A stretch of 64,000 bases of DNA from assembly GCA_020631855.1 (NCBI GenBank), contig JACKGU010000001.1, positions 363,118 through 427,117 on the forward strand, read 5' to 3'. This document shows, in pieces, positions 1,417 through 22,945 of the stretch. The position numbers and the translations under genes were made by a program. This DNA comes from Candidatus Nomurabacteria bacterium (GTDB lineage Bacteria > Patescibacteriota > WWE3 > UBA101185 > UBA10185). The notes under the pieces are model-generated. The model did not search any database. It had not been told where the DNA came from and saw nothing but the letters and a program-made list of their open reading frames with translations. The number at the start of each line of letters is the position of its first letter. Within the stretch, counting starts at the first letter, position 1.

Positions 1417-2493
1417 ATGAACACAGATCTGGATCCATCTAAGTACCATGTTATTAGCGTCCAAAAACTTAAGAAAATAGTTTTTTTCAGCCTCATCGGC
1501 ATAGCTATTATCGGTCCGCTTGTTTCCTACGGATACTATAAGTTTGCAGTTACCAGGCCTTCTCAAACCGACAAGGAAGTTACCTACAGGGTTGAAAAGG
1601 GTCAAAGTGTCGCAGATATCTCAAACGAACTGTACAGTGCCGAAGCTATAAATTCTGCTTTCCTGCTAAAGCTATATATCGTAATAAATAAACTTCAAGA
1701 CAATATTCAAGCCGGAAACTATATAATACCTGCCGGAAGCTCGGTAGCTGAAGTCGCTAACCTTCTTCAGCACGGGAAAGATGACGTAGATATAACTTTC
1801 ACCGAAGGTATGAGGGTAGAGGAATACGCTCTTGCTGCAAGCAAAACATTTAAAAATATAGGATACGAAAACTTTATCGAACTTGCTAAATCATACGAAG
1901 GAACTCTTTTCCCGGAGACATACAGATTTAATATAGAGGTGAAAGAAAATGAAATTATAGATCAAATGAGAGAAACTTATAAACAACGCACAGCTTCTAT
2001 CTTAACTCAAGAAAACATATTAAAAACGGGACTTTCAGAAAAAGAGATATTAATTTTAGCATCAATTGTTGAGAGAGAGGCATCTGATCCTGCTGAAAGG
2101 CCCGTAGTTGCGGGAATTCTAATAAACAGATTCAAAGAGGGGGAACTTATAGGAGCAGACGCTACAACCCAGTATGCAATTGCGGCAAAAAGATATGGAT
2201 GTGATACAAACTCTCCGGTGGTGTGCCCTAATAAAACCCAGGCAGAAGAGGTGAACTGGTGGCCACACGATCTTACCGTAGACGAGCTTAAAGACCAAAG
2301 CCCCTACAATACTAGGGCGATCGTAGGGCTTCCGCCTGCACCAATTTGCAGCCCCGGCCTTGATGCAATAGAAGCAGTAATTAACTACACACAAACCGAC
2401 TATAATTACTATCTCAATGATTCACAAGGAAAAACTCATTACGCCAAAACCTTAGAGGAGCATAATATAAACGTATCTAAATACCTACGATGA
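1417..2493 (+). CDS. mltG: endolytic murein transglycosylase MltG (YceG-like)
   Basis: N-terminal TM anchor; motifs ITFTEGMRVEE, ASIVEREA and GLPPAPICSPGLDAIEAV match the YceG/MltG family. Confidence 0.8.
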   Translation: MNTDLDPSKYHVISVQKLKKIVFFSLIGIAIIGPLVSYGYYKFAVTRPSQTDKEVTYRVEKGQSVADISNELYSAEAINSAFLLKLYIVINKLQDNIQAGNYIIPAGSSVAEVANLLQHGKDDVDITFTEGMRVEEYALAASKTFKNIGYENFIELAKSYEGTLFPETYRFNIEVKENEIIDQMRETYKQRTASILTQENILKTGLSEKEILILASIVEREASDPAERPVVAGILINRFKEGELIGADATTQYAIAAKRYGCDTNSPVVCPNKTQAEEVNWWPHDLTVDELKDQSPYNTRAIVGLPPAPICSPGLDAIEAVINYTQTDYNYYLNDSQGKTHYAKTLEEHNINVSKYLR

Positions 2494-3545: not shown

Positions 3546-4232
3546 ATGAGCCAAATAGAATTTTTTAATTTAACTAAACAATACGAAAATGGCTTTTACG
3601 CGGTCAAAGACGTGTCCTTCGCAGTATCTAAAGGTGAATTTGTATTTATAGTAGGATCTTCCGGAGCCGGTAAATCAACTCTGGTGAGATGTCTCATAAG
3701 AGAAGAGGAGCCTACGGCGGGGCAAATACTTTTTAACGGAAAAAACGTGATAGAAATACCTAAAAAAGAGCTACCGGAACTAAGAAGACAAATAGGTGTA
3801 GTTTTCCAGGACTTTAAAGTCTTGGATACAAGAAATGTTGCCGACAACGTAGCAGTTGCACTAGAGGTTGTAAACACACCTGCCGAAGTAAAAAACGAAA
3901 TAATACCAAACGTATTAAACATGGTAGGGCTTCAAGATAAATCTAATCTGTTTCCATACCAGCTTTCGGGAGGCGAAAAACAGCGCCTGTCTATTGCAAG
4001 GGCACTGGCGCACGAGCCTGATGTGCTAGTAGCAGACGAACCCACCGGCATGATAGACCCCAAAGCTACATGGGAAGTTATGGAAATTTTGGAAAAAATT
4101 AACACGCTGGGAACAACTATTTTAATGGCTACCCACGATCAAAGTATAGTGGATAAGTTGAGAAAACGGGTTGTCAGAATTGAAAAAGGCCAGATAGTTT
4201 CTGACGTAGAGAAAGGCAAATATGAAGAATAG
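3546..4232 (+). CDS. ftsE: cell division ABC transporter ATP-binding protein FtsE
   Basis: Walker A GSSGAGKST, ABC signature LSGGEKQR and Walker B LVADEPT are present, and the gene is fused in an operon with ftsX. Confidence 0.85.
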   Translation: MSQIEFFNLTKQYENGFYAVKDVSFAVSKGEFVFIVGSSGAGKSTLVRCLIREEEPTAGQILFNGKNVIEIPKKELPELRRQIGVVFQDFKVLDTRNVADNVAVALEVVNTPAEVKNEIIPNVLNMVGLQDKSNLFPYQLSGGEKQRLSIARALAHEPDVLVADEPTGMIDPKATWEVMEILEKINTLGTTILMATHDQSIVDKLRKRVVRIEKGQIVSDVEKGKYEE

Positions 4233-5091
4233 CTTTTACAAAAAAGAGAAACTGCTAATTGCAACAAACATAATATCTGTAACTATAACCTTTTTATTGC
4301 TTGGGGGGCTTGCCTTTGTAATAGCTTTCACACAAACAGGAATAAGAAAGCTTGAAGAACAAGCACAAATAACTATTTTTTTTGAAGATGCCTATCCTGA
4401 GTCATCAATACTCAACCTTGCAAACGAGCTAGAAAACGACCCTCAAGTAAGTAACGTGAACTACGTTTCAAAAGAAGAGGCCTATAGCATATTTACCGAT
4501 TTAAACAAGGACGAGCCTGTTCTTTTAGAATCAATAACTCCGGACATACTTCCGGCCAGCCTTGAGATAAAAACCAAAAAACTTGCCGATATGAACGATA
4601 TCTCAGAGAGACTATCGAACATGGATGGGGTTGAAGAAATAAAATTTTACAAAGATGTGATTGAACGCTTTACTTTTTGGACCAATGTTTCCTATGCTGT
4701 GGGAATAGCCCTCGTGTCATTGTTCTTGATAGTTTCGTATGCAATTATTCTCATAACGCTGCGCATAAACATAGGGTACATCGGCAAAGAACTTGAAATT
4801 CTAAAGCTAGTTGGTGCTTCAGATGCTTATATAAAAAATCCTCTAGTTAAGCAGGGGGTGAGTCTGGGATTAATTTCAGCATTTATTTCGGGAGCATTGC
4901 TACTTTCCTTTGCCCTGATCGTTCAATTTGCTCATCTTATTAACACAAACATTAAATTCGGCTTTATTCCTGAAATAGAAATAGCTTTGCCGATTTTCGC
5001 ACTAATTATAAATTTTGTACTTGTTGCTTCAGGTGCTGCACTAGGCTACATTGGTAGCGTTTCAGCAATTCAAAAATATATAAACCACTAA
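4222..5091 (+). CDS. ftsX: cell division permease FtsX
   Basis: TM1, a periplasmic domain and three C-terminal TM helices; it overlaps the ftsE stop. Confidence 0.75.
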   Translation: MKNSFYKKEKLLIATNIISVTITFLLLGGLAFVIAFTQTGIRKLEEQAQITIFFEDAYPESSILNLANELENDPQVSNVNYVSKEEAYSIFTDLNKDEPVLLESITPDILPASLEIKTKKLADMNDISERLSNMDGVEEIKFYKDVIERFTFWTNVSYAVGIALVSLFLIVSYAIILITLRINIGYIGKELEILKLVGASDAYIKNPLVKQGVSLGLISAFISGALLLSFALIVQFAHLINTNIKFGFIPEIEIALPIFALIINFVLVASGAALGYIGSVSAIQKYINH

Positions 5092-5093
5092 AA

Positions 5094-6305
5094 ATGAGGA
5101 TAACAAAAATACTACTATCGACAACTTTTCTTCTGGGCGCGCTATTTTTTATAGGAAAAACTTCTATTTTAGCGCAATTAGAAGAAGGGCCTATCTATGG
5201 AGCAACAGAGGGTGGCGACGATTTCGACAAAACAATGAAAGAGCTGGAAAAAAAGAAGCAGGAATATGAAAAGAAAATTAAAGACCTCCAGCAGGAAGAA
5301 AATTCTTTGCAGAAACAGATTGATACAGCAACCACACAAATATATTTAACACAAACTGAAATTAATATTAAACAACAAGAGATTGCAGAAACCGAAAAAG
5401 AGATACGGGAGTTAGGGGAAGATATAAGCGACCTTAAGAATAGAATAGCAAAGCTTAAGAAAACTATAGCGATACAACAAGATTACTTATCAGAGAGAAT
5501 GCGCGCAAGATATAAAACGGGAGAAAATTCATATGTAATAATGGTTTTTGGGTCAGATAAGTTCAATTCACTTTTACAAAAAACAAAATTCTTAAAAGTA
5601 ATGGAATACCAAGATAAAAAGCTTATTGCTGAAATGGACGCCACAAAAGCCGCCTACAACGACCAAAAAGATATTGCCGAAGACAAAAAGAAAGAAGCCG
5701 AAACACTACAAGATCAGCTGGAAAGGCAGCAAAACGAACTTGCAGCGGCCCGAGCGGAGCTTGACAGGCAAAAGGCAGATAAAGAAACTTTGCTCCGAGA
5801 AACTCAAAATGACGAGCAAAAATACCAATCCTTGCTCGCACAAGTAGAATCGGAAATGGCAGCCCTCAATATGGCTATAAACCTCCCTGAGGGGGGAGAA
5901 GAGGTGAAAAAAGGCGACATAATAGGTTTAATGGGAAATACGGGATGTTCCTCCGGACCGCACGTACATTTTGGCTTTATTAAAAACAGCAAAGCGGTCG
6001 ATCCTCTCCCCTACCTTAACGACGGCCATCTAAAGTGGCCTGTCAGTGACTGGCAGATAACCCAAGGGTTTGGCGCAAATTACTGGTTCTACATGAACAA
6101 CTTTGGGATTCCCGGACACGATGCTTTAGATATTGTCTCAAGAGGTCAGTGGTCAGGCGCGCCAATTAAGGCGGCCCGTGATGGAAAGTTACGCTATGCT
6201 CAAGATGCAAGAGTCTACTGCCCGTGGCTAAACAACTCCATCGGCAAGGGCGCGATTATTGACCACGGAGACGGAGAGAAAACTATCTACTGGCACCTGC
6301 AGTAA
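5094..6305 (+). CDS. coiled-coil M23 (LytM-type) peptidase, EnvC-like; M23 domain apparently circularly permuted
   Basis: N-terminal signal/TM and a long coiled coil (residues about 40-250). This is followed by GDIIGLMGNTGCSSGPHVHF...VDPLPYL (the C-terminal third of an M23 domain, with HxH), and only then by GHDALDI...(HxxxD)...GAIIDHGDGEKTIYWHLQ, which is the N-terminal two-thirds of the domain. Confidence 0.75.
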   Translation: MRITKILLSTTFLLGALFFIGKTSILAQLEEGPIYGATEGGDDFDKTMKELEKKKQEYEKKIKDLQQEENSLQKQIDTATTQIYLTQTEINIKQQEIAETEKEIRELGEDISDLKNRIAKLKKTIAIQQDYLSERMRARYKTGENSYVIMVFGSDKFNSLLQKTKFLKVMEYQDKKLIAEMDATKAAYNDQKDIAEDKKKEAETLQDQLERQQNELAAARAELDRQKADKETLLRETQNDEQKYQSLLAQVESEMAALNMAINLPEGGEEVKKGDIIGLMGNTGCSSGPHVHFGFIKNSKAVDPLPYLNDGHLKWPVSDWQITQGFGANYWFYMNNFGIPGHDALDIVSRGQWSGAPIKAARDGKLRYAQDARVYCPWLNNSIGKGAIIDHGDGEKTIYWHLQ

Positions 6306-6423
6306 AATCTTAATTCTTTATTGGCGAAAAAATGTAATGCCAAGGCCAAAATCAAAAAGGCATAAATCTATCCTACTTGTAATAGACACTTTTGCGCAAA
6401 GTTTTATATTAGCAATATAGAAT

Positions 6424-6948: not shown

Positions 6949-7326
6949 GTGAAAAAAAATAAAAAACTACTACGATGGTTGCCCTCAGTAATAGTTGCAA
7001 CAATAATTTTTGCGGCATCTACCATACCCGGAGATCAGATACAAGCTTCGGGGTATGGGCAAGAAAAGTACCAAATAAACGCCCATTTCGTCTTATACAT
7101 GGCATTAGCCGGGGCAGTTTATTATGCATCACAAAATCCAAAAAGAACAGTGCTGATTTGTTTTGTTTATGCACTATCTGATGAATTTCATCAGGTATTT
7201 ACGCCACAGAGATCTCCGCAGATCTTTGACATAGCTGTAGACATGGTCGGTGTTATAATATCTACATTGCTATGGAGTACAATATTACCGAAATTTCGCA
7301 AACACAAAAACTTGCCGAAAAAATAG
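6949..7326 (+). CDS. VanZ-family membrane protein
   Basis: TM helices plus the C-terminal motif DEFHQVFTPQRSPQIFDIAVDMVGVII, typical of the VanZ-like family. Confidence 0.55.
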   Translation: MKKNKKLLRWLPSVIVATIIFAASTIPGDQIQASGYGQEKYQINAHFVLYMALAGAVYYASQNPKRTVLICFVYALSDEFHQVFTPQRSPQIFDIAVDMVGVIISTLLWSTILPKFRKHKNLPKK

Positions 7327-7706
7327 CCAAAGAAATCAGCGAAAATACCGTAATTTTACTTTTCGGAGACCTTGGATCCGGTAAAACAACCTTTAGTAGA
7401 TTTTTCTCTATAGCCATGGGAAGCGAAAACAGGGTTCAAAGCCCCACTTTTGTAATACATCGCCAATACATTGCGCCGAATAACGAAAATGTTCAAAGAA
7501 TAAACCACTACGACTTGTATAGAATAACAAATAAAGCAGAACTGGAGGATTTGAGCATCTACGAAGCGCTTAACGAACCGGAGCAAGTAAGTTTAGTTGA
7601 ATGGCCGGAATTATTAGAAAAAACACAAATTACAGCTAAAATAATAAGTATAGAATTTGAAGATAATAATGGAAAAAGAATCGCAAAAATTAACACTAAT
7701 AATTAA
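7272..7706 (+). CDS. tsaE: tRNA t6A biosynthesis ATPase TsaE (YjeE)
   Basis: P-loop GDLGSGKTTF, SPTFVI, HYDLYRI and the LVEWPE motif. The start is uncertain because it overlaps the preceding ORF by about 55 nt. Confidence 0.7.
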   Translation: MEYNITEISQTQKLAEKIAKEISENTVILLFGDLGSGKTTFSRFFSIAMGSENRVQSPTFVIHRQYIAPNNENVQRINHYDLYRITNKAELEDLSIYEALNEPEQVSLVEWPELLEKTQITAKIISIEFEDNNGKRIAKINTNN

Positions 7707-16349: not shown

Positions 16350-19300
16350 CTATCTCTCCGCTCGGCTGCTGGTTACAGCTTGATACCACCTATATGCCGC
16401 CGTTGCAGATCCCATGCGAAACCATTGATCAAAAGGACCTATTAAATCCTCCCCGTCGGGACCTGTCGGGGGGTCATTATTATAATTAATCTCGGGTTCA
16501 ATTGGACAAATATCTACGTAATTGCCAAAATCCGGGTGGAAACCGCAAGACATAAGCCCCATGTTGCTGTGTTCTGAATCAATAAGGTTTAAAGGCAGGT
16601 TGTCGTAGCCTTCGTAAGGAAGAGGGTCGCTGCAATACTGTGCAAACCCCGGATACACTACGTATGGGTCATTGTATTGAGTAAGTTTGTGTCCACAATT
16701 TTTATAAAATGGCGATGTATATCTAGAAAATGCTCTCACAGAAGAATAGTAATCAAGATTTGAAGCTGAAGTCCCGGAATGCGCAATAAAAATTCTTGCG
16801 GCATCAACGCCCGATTCATAAAGGCCCGGAAGACAAGATTCAAATGTTGTATCTCCTTCCTCGCAAGGGGGATAAGTTTTACCAACATCAGGTTCGTTCT
16901 CGCCTAAGACCCTACCACTTATAATTGAACGGTTAGGGGCGTTTGTGCCGCCTGTTTCGTTATAATGAAGACCCGCAAATATCTCGCATGCTAAACCTGT
17001 AACATCCTCAAGCGCGGCATAAACGCCCTCAACCTGGGGGGAAACATTCGGCACATCCGATGTTGTCGGAGATAAATTCGGAGCATTCTTCAAAAAAGTA
17101 CTGGCAAAAACAGAACCGTTGCATTTACCATCAAAGCCTGGAGGTGGGGGCGTAGTCCCGGTACCATCGTCACCTTTATCAACAAGTTCGGGAGCTTCCA
17201 TTCCGGAGTATGATGTTGAATTCGGCACCTTCACATATGAGCTGACGTTTTGCAAGGTTGTCACACCACTACCGCCACTGTTCATGGCATAACGTTCTTT
17301 GTCGTAGTCGGAAAGCAAGTTTTGAGGATCAATATCGTGGAATGTCATACTGCCTGTTCTGTAGGCTTCTTGAGACGGCAGTCTAAAAGTCAGAGCAGCT
17401 AACTCAGTTGCCGCAGAGATCTCTTTAGGATGAGTCGGGTCTTCAGGAGCATACATTATGCCAGTGTATGGCCCGACAATATCCCCCCTGCACTGAGAAA
17501 GCCCGTCGGGATTATACACAGTGGCCTTTCTAAATATACACTGATACGAAGTTGCAGGAGAGATGCCCGTGCAAACAGCATCCCAACCGTATGTGTCACA
17601 GGCGGTCTCAGGAACACTAGTGCATTGAGAAACCTCACACCAATCCTCCCTTATATCACAAGATTGGCCTGCCGCCATATCTACAAAAGGCAGACACTCA
17701 CTTCCTATCATTGAAGGATCCCAATTATCCATAGTTGGCCCGCCGAACTTCGAAACAACATCAACGTACTCGGTAGAATAAGCTCCCAGGGCTCCTTGGC
17801 CACTCACAGATCCGGCAAAATCAATTTTTTCTTGGTCTGCAAATAACGTGTGGAACGTAATTAAAAAGAAAAATCTCTGTAACCACGAAATAAGCGACGG
17901 ATCTTTTGTTAAATACCTGTAACCAGAAGTAAAAGGGCTCTTTACATCTCCTTTTGTCTTGGAGTCCCACTCATATAATTTTTCTTCGCATGCACCATCT
18001 ACAAAATTGCAGCTACAAAGCAGGTAGGGCTTGCCAATCTGGTAATGTCCTTTTCCTGATCTTATAATTCCTGTATCCGGGCCGGGCATTAATTGAGGAA
18101 TACGTACCCCGTTTTCATCCAACCCAAAAGGAAGACCCGGCAACAAACGAACTGCCCCCAAAGGCCCTTTTAATCCCATGTCTTGAGCAACTTTTTCGCT
18201 AGCGTACATTTCCGAAGCAAATAAATTGGTCTCGGGAACACCTGACGGAATTATAGGTAACATGTTATAAGATTTCATATCTTGTTCCACTTCGTTATCA
18301 TCAAGACGAGCTTTTCTCGAACACGCTATATCAGGATTTCCATCGGTTAAAATACAATCCGCAGAGTCTTTAGTATTTTCATAAAATGCCTGTCCATAAA
18401 CTGTTGTGTCTATTGCAGATAAAACAGCCAAAACAGGATATTCGCTAAACGAAGAAGACGGAACTCCGTCATCAAAAGGATTTGGGAAGTCATTATAATA
18501 TTTATAATTTGTACCATCTTTGCAAACTGCAGGATTAGCTATTTTAGCTACCTCATGCAAACTTTCTAAAGCATTAGGGAGCTGCATTGTAACCGAATAG
18601 TTGTAACACGTATTCATACTTTGAGAAGGTTTTTCATTTGTTTCTGGAATTACAAGACGATTACAGGCCTCAATATTTTCACATAGGGGTAACTTGGCGA
18701 GCCTCTCTTCTTCCGTGCCTTCAACAAAAGGATCAACCTGCCTATCTTCTTCTCCTCGATACGAGCCGAAGGGGTTTTCAGTCACCTTGGCCCCTAGCCC
18801 AGTAGTACTGTCTCGGCCCTCTAAATCTTCTTTCGAGGGTTGGACGGAATAAGGCAAGCGAGTTGGCACGCCGTTTACAAACCCTACATCTTTATTGTCA
18901 TAAGAACCATCAGCTCCTTCTCGTCCTACATAAGCCTCGCGCCTGTAACCAAGGGCTATTTCAGAAGACCCCGATAAATTAAGTTCGGCCGGAGTACTGT
19001 TCTCATCTCCAAAACAAGCTAGTGGTTGTTTCTCGTTGTAAAGTTTTTGCAAAGAAAAAGTTAACGGAGCAACAGCGGGACGATCGTAATTTAAATCGGA
19101 ACAAGAAATTTTATGGTTCATTTCAACAACGTTGTTACTTAAGTCAACAGACCAGGCATCAACTACCTGATCGTCTTCTTCACACGTCAGCAGTAAATAA
19201 ACCGAGTTATTAAAAGAGCCTCCATCAGCCTTTCGCGTACATTGAATTTCATAATTTCCATCTCCATCGGTTGTAGTGGAGGCATCCCAATCAACAAAAC

Positions 19301-20516
19301 CGGAGACATTGCCGGACTCTGTATCCCAAGTGCCTTGATAACAATGCAAACCTACGCCTCTAATGGGGGCGTCTACCTTCATTCTATTTCCGTCAAGTGT
19401 GTCACGAACCGGATTAAGGTTTGTAACCTTTCCCCTTATAGTTACTTTTACATCAAATGGGTCGGTCTTCACCATACAACCATTTGGAAAACAGTCTCCG
19501 TTAATATCCCACCAACACTCCGATTCGGGCTCGTTAGGCCCGGCTATTGCATAAACCGTACCACTGGCTCCGGCGTTCACCAACTCCAAAAAAGCCAGAT
19601 ACTCCTCGGGGGTTTCAAAAGCCGAGCCGGTCAGATCTCCAATTCTAATTATTGGCGTAGCGCCCTTAGCTATTGCAGCATTTACAGCTTGAATTGTAGA
19701 AGACGCATCTGCGTCCGTTGAAATTTCGACAGTATAACCTAAGCCTGCCGACCCTACACCGTCATAAAAATAGCTCGGGGCTGGGGTGTAAGCGGCTGAG
19801 TGCGCTCCAACCTTCGAACAATCCTCATTTCCGTCTGGCCCGGGACACAATGACCTTACCGCCTCGCCCGTAACACCTCCATTGCTACCTACTGACCCAG
19901 TCGACAAAGAATGATAGAAGAAGCCCTCCGGATAACTTGCGGCGTTGCCGGTATTAAAAATGTTAAATAAAATAGTAGCCTCAATGATTGGATCTCCCTG
20001 AAGCTGAACTAGCTGCTGCTGCAATTCAGCTATAGTTTCTGGCCTATCTCTAACCTGTCTAAGGGGCGGATACCAGCCTGCCTCGGTGATAATAATCCTT
20101 TTATTTGGAACAAGACTTTTTAAACGTCCCACGTATTCCGTAATTGTACCTTGAAGCTCAGCCCCTGAATTGTATGTGTTGTATGCGTTGCCCGACAGAG
20201 CGTAAAAATCATTTAAGCTGTAGGGGGCAAGGGATGCATCCATTTCCAAAACAATAGATTGTAATAAACTTTCAGGAGCTGTTAAATTAAATGTAGGAGA
20301 TAGTAACTCAATATTATTCAGCTGACCTGCATTTTTAGCCGCCAACAAAGGCTTAGCAAAACTTGCGATTCCCCTGCCTACACACTCTGCTGTAGCAGTA
20401 GACACATTTCCGCCCGCATTAGACCTTAGGGCACCAAACCAAAAAGAAAAACCCAGCGAAGTAACAAATATAAGGGTTAATACTAACTTGTTTTGTAAAA
20501 ATTTGAGCGCAGCCAT
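16350..20516 (-). CDS. giant secreted/surface protein (1388 aa), Cys-rich C-terminal two-thirds; N-terminal region carries glycoside-hydrolase clan GH-A-like motifs
   Basis: Signal peptide/TM at the N-terminus; IIITEAGW (TExG-like) at about residue 147 and GPNEPE (NEP-like) at about residue 330; more than 60 Cys in the C-terminal region. Confidence 0.7.
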   Translation of the reverse strand: MAALKFLQNKLVLTLIFVTSLGFSFWFGALRSNAGGNVSTATAECVGRGIASFAKPLLAAKNAGQLNNIELLSPTFNLTAPESLLQSIVLEMDASLAPYSLNDFYALSGNAYNTYNSGAELQGTITEYVGRLKSLVPNKRIIITEAGWYPPLRQVRDRPETIAELQQQLVQLQGDPIIEATILFNIFNTGNAASYPEGFFYHSLSTGSVGSNGGVTGEAVRSLCPGPDGNEDCSKVGAHSAAYTPAPSYFYDGVGSAGLGYTVEISTDADASSTIQAVNAAIAKGATPIIRIGDLTGSAFETPEEYLAFLELVNAGASGTVYAIAGPNEPESECWWDINGDCFPNGCMVKTDPFDVKVTIRGKVTNLNPVRDTLDGNRMKVDAPIRGVGLHCYQGTWDTESGNVSGFVDWDASTTTDGDGNYEIQCTRKADGGSFNNSVYLLLTCEEDDQVVDAWSVDLSNNVVEMNHKISCSDLNYDRPAVAPLTFSLQKLYNEKQPLACFGDENSTPAELNLSGSSEIALGYRREAYVGREGADGSYDNKDVGFVNGVPTRLPYSVQPSKEDLEGRDSTTGLGAKVTENPFGSYRGEEDRQVDPFVEGTEEERLAKLPLCENIEACNRLVIPETNEKPSQSMNTCYNYSVTMQLPNALESLHEVAKIANPAVCKDGTNYKYYNDFPNPFDDGVPSSSFSEYPVLAVLSAIDTTVYGQAFYENTKDSADCILTDGNPDIACSRKARLDDNEVEQDMKSYNMLPIIPSGVPETNLFASEMYASEKVAQDMGLKGPLGAVRLLPGLPFGLDENGVRIPQLMPGPDTGIIRSGKGHYQIGKPYLLCSCNFVDGACEEKLYEWDSKTKGDVKSPFTSGYRYLTKDPSLISWLQRFFFLITFHTLFADQEKIDFAGSVSGQGALGAYSTEYVDVVSKFGGPTMDNWDPSMIGSECLPFVDMAAGQSCDIREDWCEVSQCTSVPETACDTYGWDAVCTGISPATSYQCIFRKATVYNPDGLSQCRGDIVGPYTGIMYAPEDPTHPKEISAATELAALTFRLPSQEAYRTGSMTFHDIDPQNLLSDYDKERYAMNSGGSGVTTLQNVSSYVKVPNSTSYSGMEAPELVDKGDDGTGTTPPPPGFDGKCNGSVFASTFLKNAPNLSPTTSDVPNVSPQVEGVYAALEDVTGLACEIFAGLHYNETGGTNAPNRSIISGRVLGENEPDVGKTYPPCEEGDTTFESCLPGLYESGVDAARIFIAHSGTSASNLDYYSSVRAFSRYTSPFYKNCGHKLTQYNDPYVVYPGFAQYCSDPLPYEGYDNLPLNLIDSEHSNMGLMSCGFHPDFGNYVDICPIEPEINYNNDPPTGPDGEDLIGPFDQWFRMGSATAAYRWYQAVTSSRAER

Positions 20517-21634: not shown

Positions 21635-21709
21635 TCCCCTGTAGCTCAATGGTAGAGCGCCCGGCTGTTAACCGGTAGGTTGGTGGTTCGAGTCCACCCG
21701 GGGGAGCCA
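21635..21709 (+). tRNA. tRNA-Asn (anticodon GUU), CCA encoded
   Basis: U1-A72 acceptor (UCCCCUG/CGGGGGA), D-arm GCUC-AAUGGUA-GAGC, anticodon loop CUGUUAA, T-loop UUCGAGU, and a G discriminator followed by CCA. Confidence 0.8.
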
Positions 21710-22945
21710 AGTAGAATCAGTAGGCTCAGAAACACCATATTTAGCTGTGACAGCAACTAAATCCACTGGTTCTAACCGTCTATTTTTCACATATTCAGGA
21801 TTTTTACCCTCCTTGAATATCAAGAAGGGTTTTTCCAAGTCAATACACAGTTTTCTGTTATTAAGCATGAGGTTCTGACCAAGTAAAGATAAGATTTCTC
21901 TTTTAACAGTAAGTCCGCCATTTTCAAATCTCTCACGAACACTTGTAGCAAAGTTGAATACATCTTCAATCTTTTTGAGATATGCCTCTCTATTTTGTTC
22001 ATCTGCACTTAGTTCATCTTTAAGCTCGTCTCGTTTAGCTTTTACTTCAACTTTAATGTCTAGGTACTCTTCGCTAGAAATCTCATTATTCATACGCATG
22101 GTCAACAAATCTGCCAACTGCTTCTCTAGTCTTTTATATTCTTTTTGTTTTGATTCCAAGATTTGAAGAGAAGTTTCAGATTCGGTTTTACTCTTTTCAG
22201 TGAGGTATTTAACCGCCCAATCACGAAACTCAATTGGTATTTCGATTGATGACACCAACTCTATTATCTGCTCTTCTAAATCTAATAATGTTATAGATTT
22301 TTGCTTGCATTTAACGTGGGGTTTTCTTTTGGAACAATGATAGTAATCATATATGCCTATATTGCCCGTTTTAGGATAGTGCTTTTCCTTATGTGTTGCC
22401 GTTATAGCACACCCACATTCAGCACAATGTATCAGACCCGTATAAAGATGTACGTGTGTCTTTGGTTTTCGTTTAAGCTTTCTGCTCAGGATTTCTTGCA
22501 CCGAGTTAAATTCCTTTTTGGTCACCATTTTGGGGTGTTCACCTTTCCGTAACTGACCCTTATACCTAAAGTAACCATAATAAAAGGGGTTACTGAAAAT
22601 GTCATATAATCCTGATTTAGATATAGGTTTGCCACCAGATTTTTTTCTCTTAATAGAGCGGTAATTCCATTGGTTATTAGCAATTTCAAGTATTTCAGGA
22701 ACTGTATATGCTCCTGTAAGCATCAAATCCCACATTTTCCTTACCAAATCGAAGCGTTCTTGGTCTTTAATGATGGTGTTTTTACCTTTTTCCTTATACA
22801 TTGTGTTTAGATAACCCGCAGGAGCAACAGAAGGTAACCACCCTTTTTCAACTTTGGATTCTAGACCATCTGCAACTCTTTCCCCTTTTACATCATTCTC
22901 AAATTTAGCATTAAGCATGTTGTATTGGAGCATTAAGATTCCCAT
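21668..22945 (-). pseudogene. 5'-truncated large serine recombinase (lacks catalytic resolvase domain); C-terminal 14 codons antisense to tRNA-Asn
   Basis: It aligns with residues from about 150 onward of the intact recombinase at 60434..62047 (GWLPSVAPAGY vs LSPTPKYGY; FSNPFYYGYF vs FRDPFYYGVL). Zn-ribbon cysteines CAECGC...HC and a coiled coil are present. The resolvase domain and its catalytic serine (conserved RSxE/DQ context) are absent. Confidence 0.65.

Follow-up and report, generated by a model that had tools for sequence, protein, structure and literature searches.

A circularly permuted M23 peptidase domain encoded behind ftsE-ftsX in Patescibacteria

The protein encoded next to ftsE-ftsX in Candidatus Nomurabacteria bacterium (contig JACKGU010000001.1), a member of the candidate phyla radiation (CPR), has an M23/LytM zinc-peptidase domain whose last third precedes its first two-thirds. 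The five predicted catalytic residues are retained, and the swapped order is shared by 141 protein clusters and by 77 of 80 species-level genome loci from WWE3/Katanobacteria and Microgenomates, nearly all of them behind ftsEX. We found no paper or curated family that describes this permutation. The protein is most likely an FtsEX-controlled peptidoglycan endopeptidase rather than a degenerate activator of the EnvC type, although this function is inferred from sequence, gene context, and predicted structure.

Results

Segment order of the M23 domain

A first-pass annotation of the window (the whole stretch of DNA analysed, 64,000 nucleotides) had reported that the EnvC-like protein encoded after ftsE and ftsX carries an M23 domain in which the HxH-containing C-terminal third comes first, followed by a 6-aa linker and the N-terminal two-thirds, with all zinc ligands present. 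This observation was confirmed. The 403-aa ORF ends in ...VKKGDIIGLMGNTGCSSGPHVHFGFIKNSKAVDPLPYL-NDGHLK-WPVSDWQITQGFG...GHDALDI...GAIIDHGDGEKTIYWHLQ, and the stop codon follows two residues after the catalytic His of the YWHL motif. The predicted zinc ligands H342 and D346 (HxxxD) and H292 (second His of HxH), and the predicted catalytic residues H290 (first His of HxH) and H401 (YWHL), are all present. The order is therefore HxH and VDP first, then HxxxD, DHG, and YWHL, and differs from the canonical linear order of the family (HxxxD, then DHG..YxHL, then GxxGxTGxSTGPHLHF, then VDP). The features of the locus are listed in Table 1.

Table 1 Features of the ftsE-ftsX-hydrolase locus. Coordinates are those of the window.
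Feature	Coordinates	Strand	Residues	Description and supporting data
ftsE	3546-4232	+		ABC ATPase of the FtsEX complex; Pfam ABC_tran, E 1.6e-36; an FtsE homologue lies in the same position in about 75 of 80 related loci
ftsX	4222-5091	+		Membrane component carrying the extracellular domain that binds the coiled-coil hydrolase; Pfam FtsX_ECD, E 1.1e-19, plus the FtsX permease domain; directly upstream of the hydrolase gene in about 75 of 80 loci
Hydrolase gene (whole ORF)	5094-6305	+	403 aa plus stop	Signal/anchor, coiled coil, and circularly permuted M23 peptidase domain
N-terminal signal peptide or membrane anchor	5094-5174	+	1-27	Hydrophobic, MRITKILLSTTFLLGALFFIGKTSILA; helical in the AlphaFold model (H3-20); export is inferred
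Antiparallel coiled coil	5214-5879	+	41-262	Presumed FtsX-binding module; Pfam CC_PcsB, E 1.7e-8, aa 118-188; model helices at 72-142, 157-236, and 241-262; ends in the conserved motif TQNDEqKYQsLLAQ (aa 237-250), in which T237, N239, D240, E241, Y244, Q245, L247, and L248 are invariant or nearly so
Segment A	5889-6017	+	266-308	Canonical C-terminal third of M23, placed first; contains GNTGCSSGPHVHF with H290 and H292, then VDPLPYL
Linker	6018-6035	+	309-314	NDGHLK, joining the canonical C-terminus to the canonical N-terminus
Segment B	6036-6302	+	315-403	Canonical N-terminal two-thirds of M23, placed last; WPV..ITQGFG, H342-DAL-D346, IDH391G, YWH401LQ, then the stop codon

Pfam PF01551 (Peptidase_M23) matched the protein at E 3.2e-17 (62.9 bits against a gathering score of 28.7), a match far beyond chance, but in two stretches. 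The best stretch, aa 266-304, corresponded to profile positions 58-96 of 96, so that the end of the model lies first in the protein. When scanned alone, the remaining piece (aa 309-403) matched profile positions 12-53.

To examine whether these two segments represent a true circular permutation, we cut the domain at the linker and re-joined it in canonical order (aa 309-403 followed by aa 262-308). The un-permuted sequence gave one contiguous Pfam match (profile positions 12-96, 75.9 bits), compared with 65.8 bits in two stretches for the native order. A search of PDB sequences with this construct returned 36 solved M23 sequences at E of 1e-3 or better, and the best alignments ran without a break across the re-made junction. 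For example, YWHLQ|INLPEGGEEVKKGD aligned with YYHLSKIDVKVGQKIKKGE of Campylobacter Pgp3 (6jmx, E 4e-15). This is the behavior expected of a permutant whose new termini lie in the loop after the YxHL strand.

Conservation of the permuted order

To examine whether the order is an artefact of one assembly, we searched for related proteins. A protein search returned about 85 full-length relatives (372-435 aa, 30-60% identity), which all end in DHGxGxxT(I/L)YWHxx, while canonical-order relatives appeared only at much weaker scores. A scan of one genome per GTDB species gave 80 loci, of which 77 end in Y[WL]H plus about two residues. The other three comprise one reading-frame problem and two loci that run off the contig end. 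Named records come from WWE3 (Katanobacteria), Daviesbacteria, Levybacteria, Curtissbacteria, Woykebacteria, Pacebacteria, and Gottesmanbacteria, that is, from WWE3 and the Microgenomates branch of the Patescibacteria.

We also ran a profile of the permuted domain against 1.84 billion representative proteins and found 201 proteins at E of 1e-30 or better. The high-scoring hits with three or more stretches were first read as possible permuted domains inside longer proteins. However, inspection showed that they carry two to four canonical M23 units in tandem and match the profile across the junction between the A segment of unit 1 and the B segment of unit 2 (E 1e-33 to 1e-51). The 201 hits are therefore a mixture, and only 62 of the 150 proteins listed are true permutants. 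Using separate HMMs for segment A (the HxH third) and segment B (HxxxD to YxHL), we assigned the A-B architecture to 141 of the 266 proteins fetched (83 of 120 homologue clusters from the first protein search and 58 more from the large search). Another 31 were canonical B-A, and about 88 were tandem canonical repeats.

In 220 permuted sequences, H290, H292, and D346 were kept in 220, H342 in 218, and H401 in 217. The chain ended exactly two residues after H401 in 194 of 215 sequences. The linker between the segments varied from about 5 aa to about 30 aa, the longer ones occurring in divergent family members, without loss of the motifs. Conservation of all five positions implies selection on catalysis or at least on zinc binding and argues for an active metallopeptidase, while the constant C-terminal breakpoint argues for a single origin. 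In agreement with this, the common ancestor of 60 un-permuted A-B domains in a neighbour-joining tree contained only three non-AB leaves, which are canonical units.

Predicted structure

The AlphaFold model of aa 255-403 was a single compact domain with a pTM of 0.89, and the linker had a pLDDT above 90. A Foldseek search with this domain-only model gave no significant PDB hit, which says nothing for or against the fold; the co-localisation of H292 with H342 and D346 is inferred rather than read from the model. The full-length model (pLDDT 82.9, pTM 0.51) showed an N-terminal hydrophobic helix, two long paired helices, a last helix, and a beta-rich domain. Its best Foldseek hits were the EnvC-FtsX structures 6tpi_A and 8tzl_E, followed by PcsB (4cgk) and RipC (8idc) complexes, a pattern that fits an M23 fold with rotated connectivity. 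The full-length model was too uncertain around aa 231-262 to bear on autoinhibition geometry, since the last coiled-coil helix (aa 241-262) had a pLDDT of 59-70.

Comparison with FtsEX partners and other M23 proteins

In E. coli, FtsEX holds EnvC, and a "restraining arm" helix blocks the groove of the catalytically dead LytM domain of EnvC until ATP binding releases it to activate amidases (PMC7668044). The protein described here resembles EnvC-type activators in its gene order (ftsE-ftsX-gene) and its predicted antiparallel coiled-coil N-domain. In contrast, the LytM domain of EnvC (E. coli, V. cholerae) has the canonical order, lacks the catalytic residues, and activates AmiA and AmiB (PMC7668044). 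The present protein scored 50.3 bits against the NCBIfam EnvC equivalog model NF008644 (cut-off 270), and the match covered only the coiled coil. The remark in the first-pass annotation that EnvC normally carries a degenerate, non-catalytic LytM domain holds for E. coli EnvC but not for this protein, which keeps an intact active site. No amidase was found among the 34 ORFs of the window that were scanned against Pfam.

PcsB of S. pneumoniae, CwlO of B. subtilis, and RipC of M. tuberculosis are FtsEX-controlled direct hydrolases of monoderm bacteria. They have a coiled-coil FtsX-binding module followed by a catalytically competent hydrolase domain, as is predicted for the present protein, and in monoderm bacteria FtsEX is predicted to release an active hydrolase domain directly (PMC7668044). 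However, their catalytic domains are CHAP or NlpC/P60 cysteine peptidases, and no permutation is involved. The present protein scored 20.3 bits against the NCBIfam PcsB model (cut-off 450), and no NCBIfam model passed its cut-off.

Canonical coiled-coil M23 proteins of Firmicutes, Actinobacteria, and some CPR bacteria (for example, the database proteins P0089, P0091 from Bhargavaea, and P0095) have the same overall length (about 380-460 aa), a coiled coil, and an M23 domain with HxxxD, YxHL, and HxH all present. P0089 shares the TxQSExxFQSL motif at the end of the coiled coil. These proteins have the order B then A, end in GPHLHFE..VDP..YL, and share only 21-30% identity with the present protein.

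In a sibling CPR lineage, the same slot (small ORF, ftsE, ftsX, hydrolase, and further on tsaE) holds the same coiled coil, including the end motif TQGSEAxYQxLLAQ, fused to a Peptidase_C39_2-type domain. The catalytic head therefore appears to be an exchangeable effector.

Tandem canonical M23 proteins (B-A-B-A, up to four units) are the arrangement expected of a precursor in a duplication-truncation model, because the junction between unit 1 and unit 2 reads like the permuted domain. Some have A-to-B linkers of only about 6 aa, for example the tandem protein P0183. They differ in that they keep complete flanking B and A segments, so that each unit is canonical, have different N-terminal regions, and lack the layout of a coiled coil followed by A-B. 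No duplication intermediate (coiled coil plus B-A-B-A or A-B-A) was found in the same lineage. We also looked for a remnant of a lost second A segment downstream of the stop codon, and the 118-bp intergenic region 6306-6423 showed nothing M23-like by eye.

Discussion

These results support the interpretation in the first-pass annotation that the domain is a genuine circular permutation. We are fairly confident that the gene encodes the extracytoplasmic partner of the FtsEX cell-division ABC complex in a lineage of the Patescibacteria, with an N-terminal anchor, an EnvC/PcsB-type coiled coil that would dock on the extracellular domain of FtsX, and a permuted M23 domain. In this view, the strand-loop-strand carrying HxH and the VDP..YL helix comes first, the linker joins the old C-terminus to the old N-terminus, and the two pieces would fold back into one M23-like domain with a complete active site. 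The protein most likely cuts peptidoglycan peptide cross-links itself at the division site, and its activity would be gated by ATP-driven conformational changes passed from FtsE through FtsX and the coiled coil, by analogy with PcsB, CwlO, and RipC. The gene order, the permuted order and its conservation, the conservation of the active-site residues, and a confident single-domain model rest directly on the present data. On the other hand, export, zinc binding, hydrolytic activity, gating by FtsEX, the evolutionary origin, and any functional consequence of the new attachment point are inferred.

The permutation probably arose once, in the ancestor of WWE3/Katanobacteria and Microgenomates, by tandem duplication of the M23 domain followed by loss of the first B and last A segments. 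Duplication plus double truncation, which the first-pass annotation had offered as an example, is plausible given the tandem proteins with short linkers.

An alternative is that the domain is permuted but the protein is a non-hydrolytic regulator that, like E. coli EnvC, uses the M23 groove to bind and activate a separate amidase. The EnvC-FtsX complexes among the best structural matches, the classical gene order, and the naming of relatives as EnvC family activators are in line with this. However, EnvC-type activators have lost the catalytic residues that are kept here, the EnvC equivalog model is not passed, and the exchange of the catalytic head for a C39-type domain in the sibling lineage fits a direct-hydrolase module that can be swapped. 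We therefore consider this reading unlikely.

It is still less likely that segments A and B of one chain do not pair with each other, the active domain being formed by domain swapping between two chains, or that they are relics of two decayed domains. The linker is only 6 aa here, permutants made by duplication and truncation can pass through swapped intermediates, and tandem canonical proteins show the same A-linker-B junction without the two segments necessarily pairing. In contrast, the monomer model is a single compact domain with a confident linker, linker length varies across the family without loss of the motifs, and solved FtsEX-EnvC complexes (8tzl, 8hd0) contain one EnvC chain according to their entry descriptions.

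Misassembly of this one contig, which the first-pass annotation had named as a refuting outcome, could be considered because the window is a metagenome-type sequence, a single contig cannot exclude chimeras, and the only 100%-identical database entry is a 268-aa fragment on a 914-bp contig, but it is ruled out by the same order, stop position, and ftsEX context in independently assembled species-level genomes and by the 141 protein clusters.

In canonical proteins, the coiled coil leads into the WP..ITSxFG strand. Here it leads into the V-KKGD-IG strand that normally follows the catalytic YxHL His, and both the attachment point and the free C-terminus are next to the catalytic center in sequence. 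The permutation may be adaptive rather than a neutral accident. The last conserved coiled-coil helix (TQNDExKYQxLLAQ) would then be tethered at the rim of the active-site cleft, and FtsEX mechanotransmission would open or plug the catalytic groove directly, a gating geometry different from the EnvC restraining arm or the PcsB arrangement and specific to a large branch of the CPR. This remains a hypothesis that we regard as unlikely on present evidence. The model is not reliable in the connecting helix.

M23/LytM domains are among the best-studied peptidoglycan hydrolase and regulator modules and include lysostaphin, LytM, EnvC, NlpD, and the Csd and Shy enzymes. All described members and all solved structures that could be searched share one chain topology. 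Literature searches on circular permutation in M23, LytM, EnvC, and lysostaphin, and on FtsEX or FtsX in Patescibacteria or CPR, found no description of a permuted M23 domain, and a review of M23 (PMC9662197) does not contain the word 'permut'. The only precedent found for a cell-wall peptidase is the circularly permuted NlpC/P60 families (YaeF/poxvirus G6R and LRAT-like; Anantharaman and Aravind 2003, as cited in PMC6403190), in which the order of catalytic residues in the sequence is likewise swapped. These have a different fold and a Cys-His papain-like mechanism, are unrelated to M23, and are not linked to FtsEX. A natural, ancient, and widely inherited permutant would show that the M23 fold tolerates a new chain start next to the active site and would offer a ready-made design for engineered lysins with alternative fusion points. 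It would also change how the FtsEX motor is mechanically coupled to its hydrolase in a major uncultivated bacterial radiation whose cell-division machinery is otherwise reduced.

Order-dependent tools split the domain, as Pfam does, or miss it, as in the Foldseek search, and annotation pipelines may therefore mislabel such proteins. Databases name the orthologues generically as 'peptidoglycan DD-metalloendopeptidase family protein', 'murein hydrolase activator EnvC family protein', and, in one UniRef entry from Katanobacteria, 'M23ase beta-sheet core domain-containing protein'. Among these, the label of an EnvC family activator is probably the wrong functional label here.

Coiled-coil end motif and exchange of the catalytic head

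The motif T-Q-N-D-E-x-K-Y-Q-x-L-L-A-Q at the end of the coiled coil of the 403-aa protein is nearly invariant, and E241 and Q245 are invariant in 54 sequences. This motif is shared with a canonical-order relative (P0089) and with variants carrying a C39-type domain, and it may be an autoinhibitory or hinge element. In a sibling groundwater CPR lineage, the same syntenic slot (small ORF, ftsE, ftsX, X, and further on tsaE) holds the same coiled coil, with the end motif TQGSEAxYQxLLAQ (locus L081, positions 4001-5302, encoding protein P0082; also proteins P0084-P0087). There, the coiled coil is fused to a Peptidase_C39_2-type domain instead of M23. The catalytic head of the FtsEX partner has been exchanged.

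Family-specific features of the permuted domain

The Cys in GNTGC just before the HxH motif (Cys285) is kept in 159 of 220 family members. Close relatives also have a Cys in the family-specific loop VYCPW of segment B (Cys375 in the 403-aa protein), and the two residues may form a disulfide that staples the segments together. Additionally, segment B carries family-specific insertions relative to canonical M23. One is a short helix, NYWFYMNNF, before the HxxxD motif, and the other is a loop, ARVYCPWLNNSIGK, before the DHG strand. Both insertions may line the substrate groove.

P0090 (381 aa), encoded on a contig of only 2.1 kb, is a divergent permuted member. Its motifs look more like those of canonical M23 (GVDYAAPQGTPI, YAHM), and it has a 13-residue tail after the catalytic His instead of 2 residues. 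P0090 may represent an early branch or an independent permutation.

Tandem canonical M23 proteins

Among the proteins obtained with the profile of the permuted domain (P0124-P0265), many carry 2-4 tandem canonical M23 units (for example P0137, P0140, and P0183). The A1-linker-B2 junction of these proteins matches a permuted-domain profile at E 1e-33 to 1e-51, and the linker is sometimes only about 6 aa. This confounds any search for permuted M23. This arrangement is also a plausible precursor state for duplication followed by truncation.

Distribution of the locus and its genomic neighbourhood

Many TPA_asm MAG records titled "uncultured Gammaproteobacteria bacterium" carry this CPR-type ftsE-ftsX-permuted-M23 locus (L010, L016, L018, and about 35 other loci from the scan of one genome per GTDB species). 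Their closest named relatives are Daviesbacteria or Levybacteria, and the organism labels of those records look unreliable.

The neighbourhood of the hydrolase gene includes MltG/YceG (E 4e-70) two genes upstream of ftsE, and a VanZ-like protein and TsaE downstream. TsaE follows the hydrolase gene in 57 of 80 related loci. Farther along the window, a 1388-aa ORF showed no Pfam match at E of 1e-5 or better, and it lies in a stretch of slightly higher G+C (0.44, against about 0.38 around it). A tRNA gene abuts a large serine-recombinase-like ORF (Pfam Recombinase and Zn_ribbon_recom), and this site may be the edge of an integrated element. Farther on, G+C is markedly low (0.29-0.33) at 40-48 kb.

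Table. Coordinates in the window of additional features of the permuted M23 protein and its surroundings.
Position	Strand	Residues	Feature
1417-2493			MltG/YceG
5802-5843		aa 237-250	Motif at the end of the coiled coil
5946-5948		Cys285	Cys in GNTGC
6078-6104		aa 329-337	Short helix in segment B
6204-6245		aa 371-384	Loop in segment B
6216-6218		Cys375	Cys in the segment B loop
6949-7326			VanZ-like protein
7272-7706			TsaE
16350-20516	-		1388-aa ORF
21635-21706	+		tRNA gene
21668-22945	-		Serine-recombinase-like ORF
40-48 kb			Low G+C stretch
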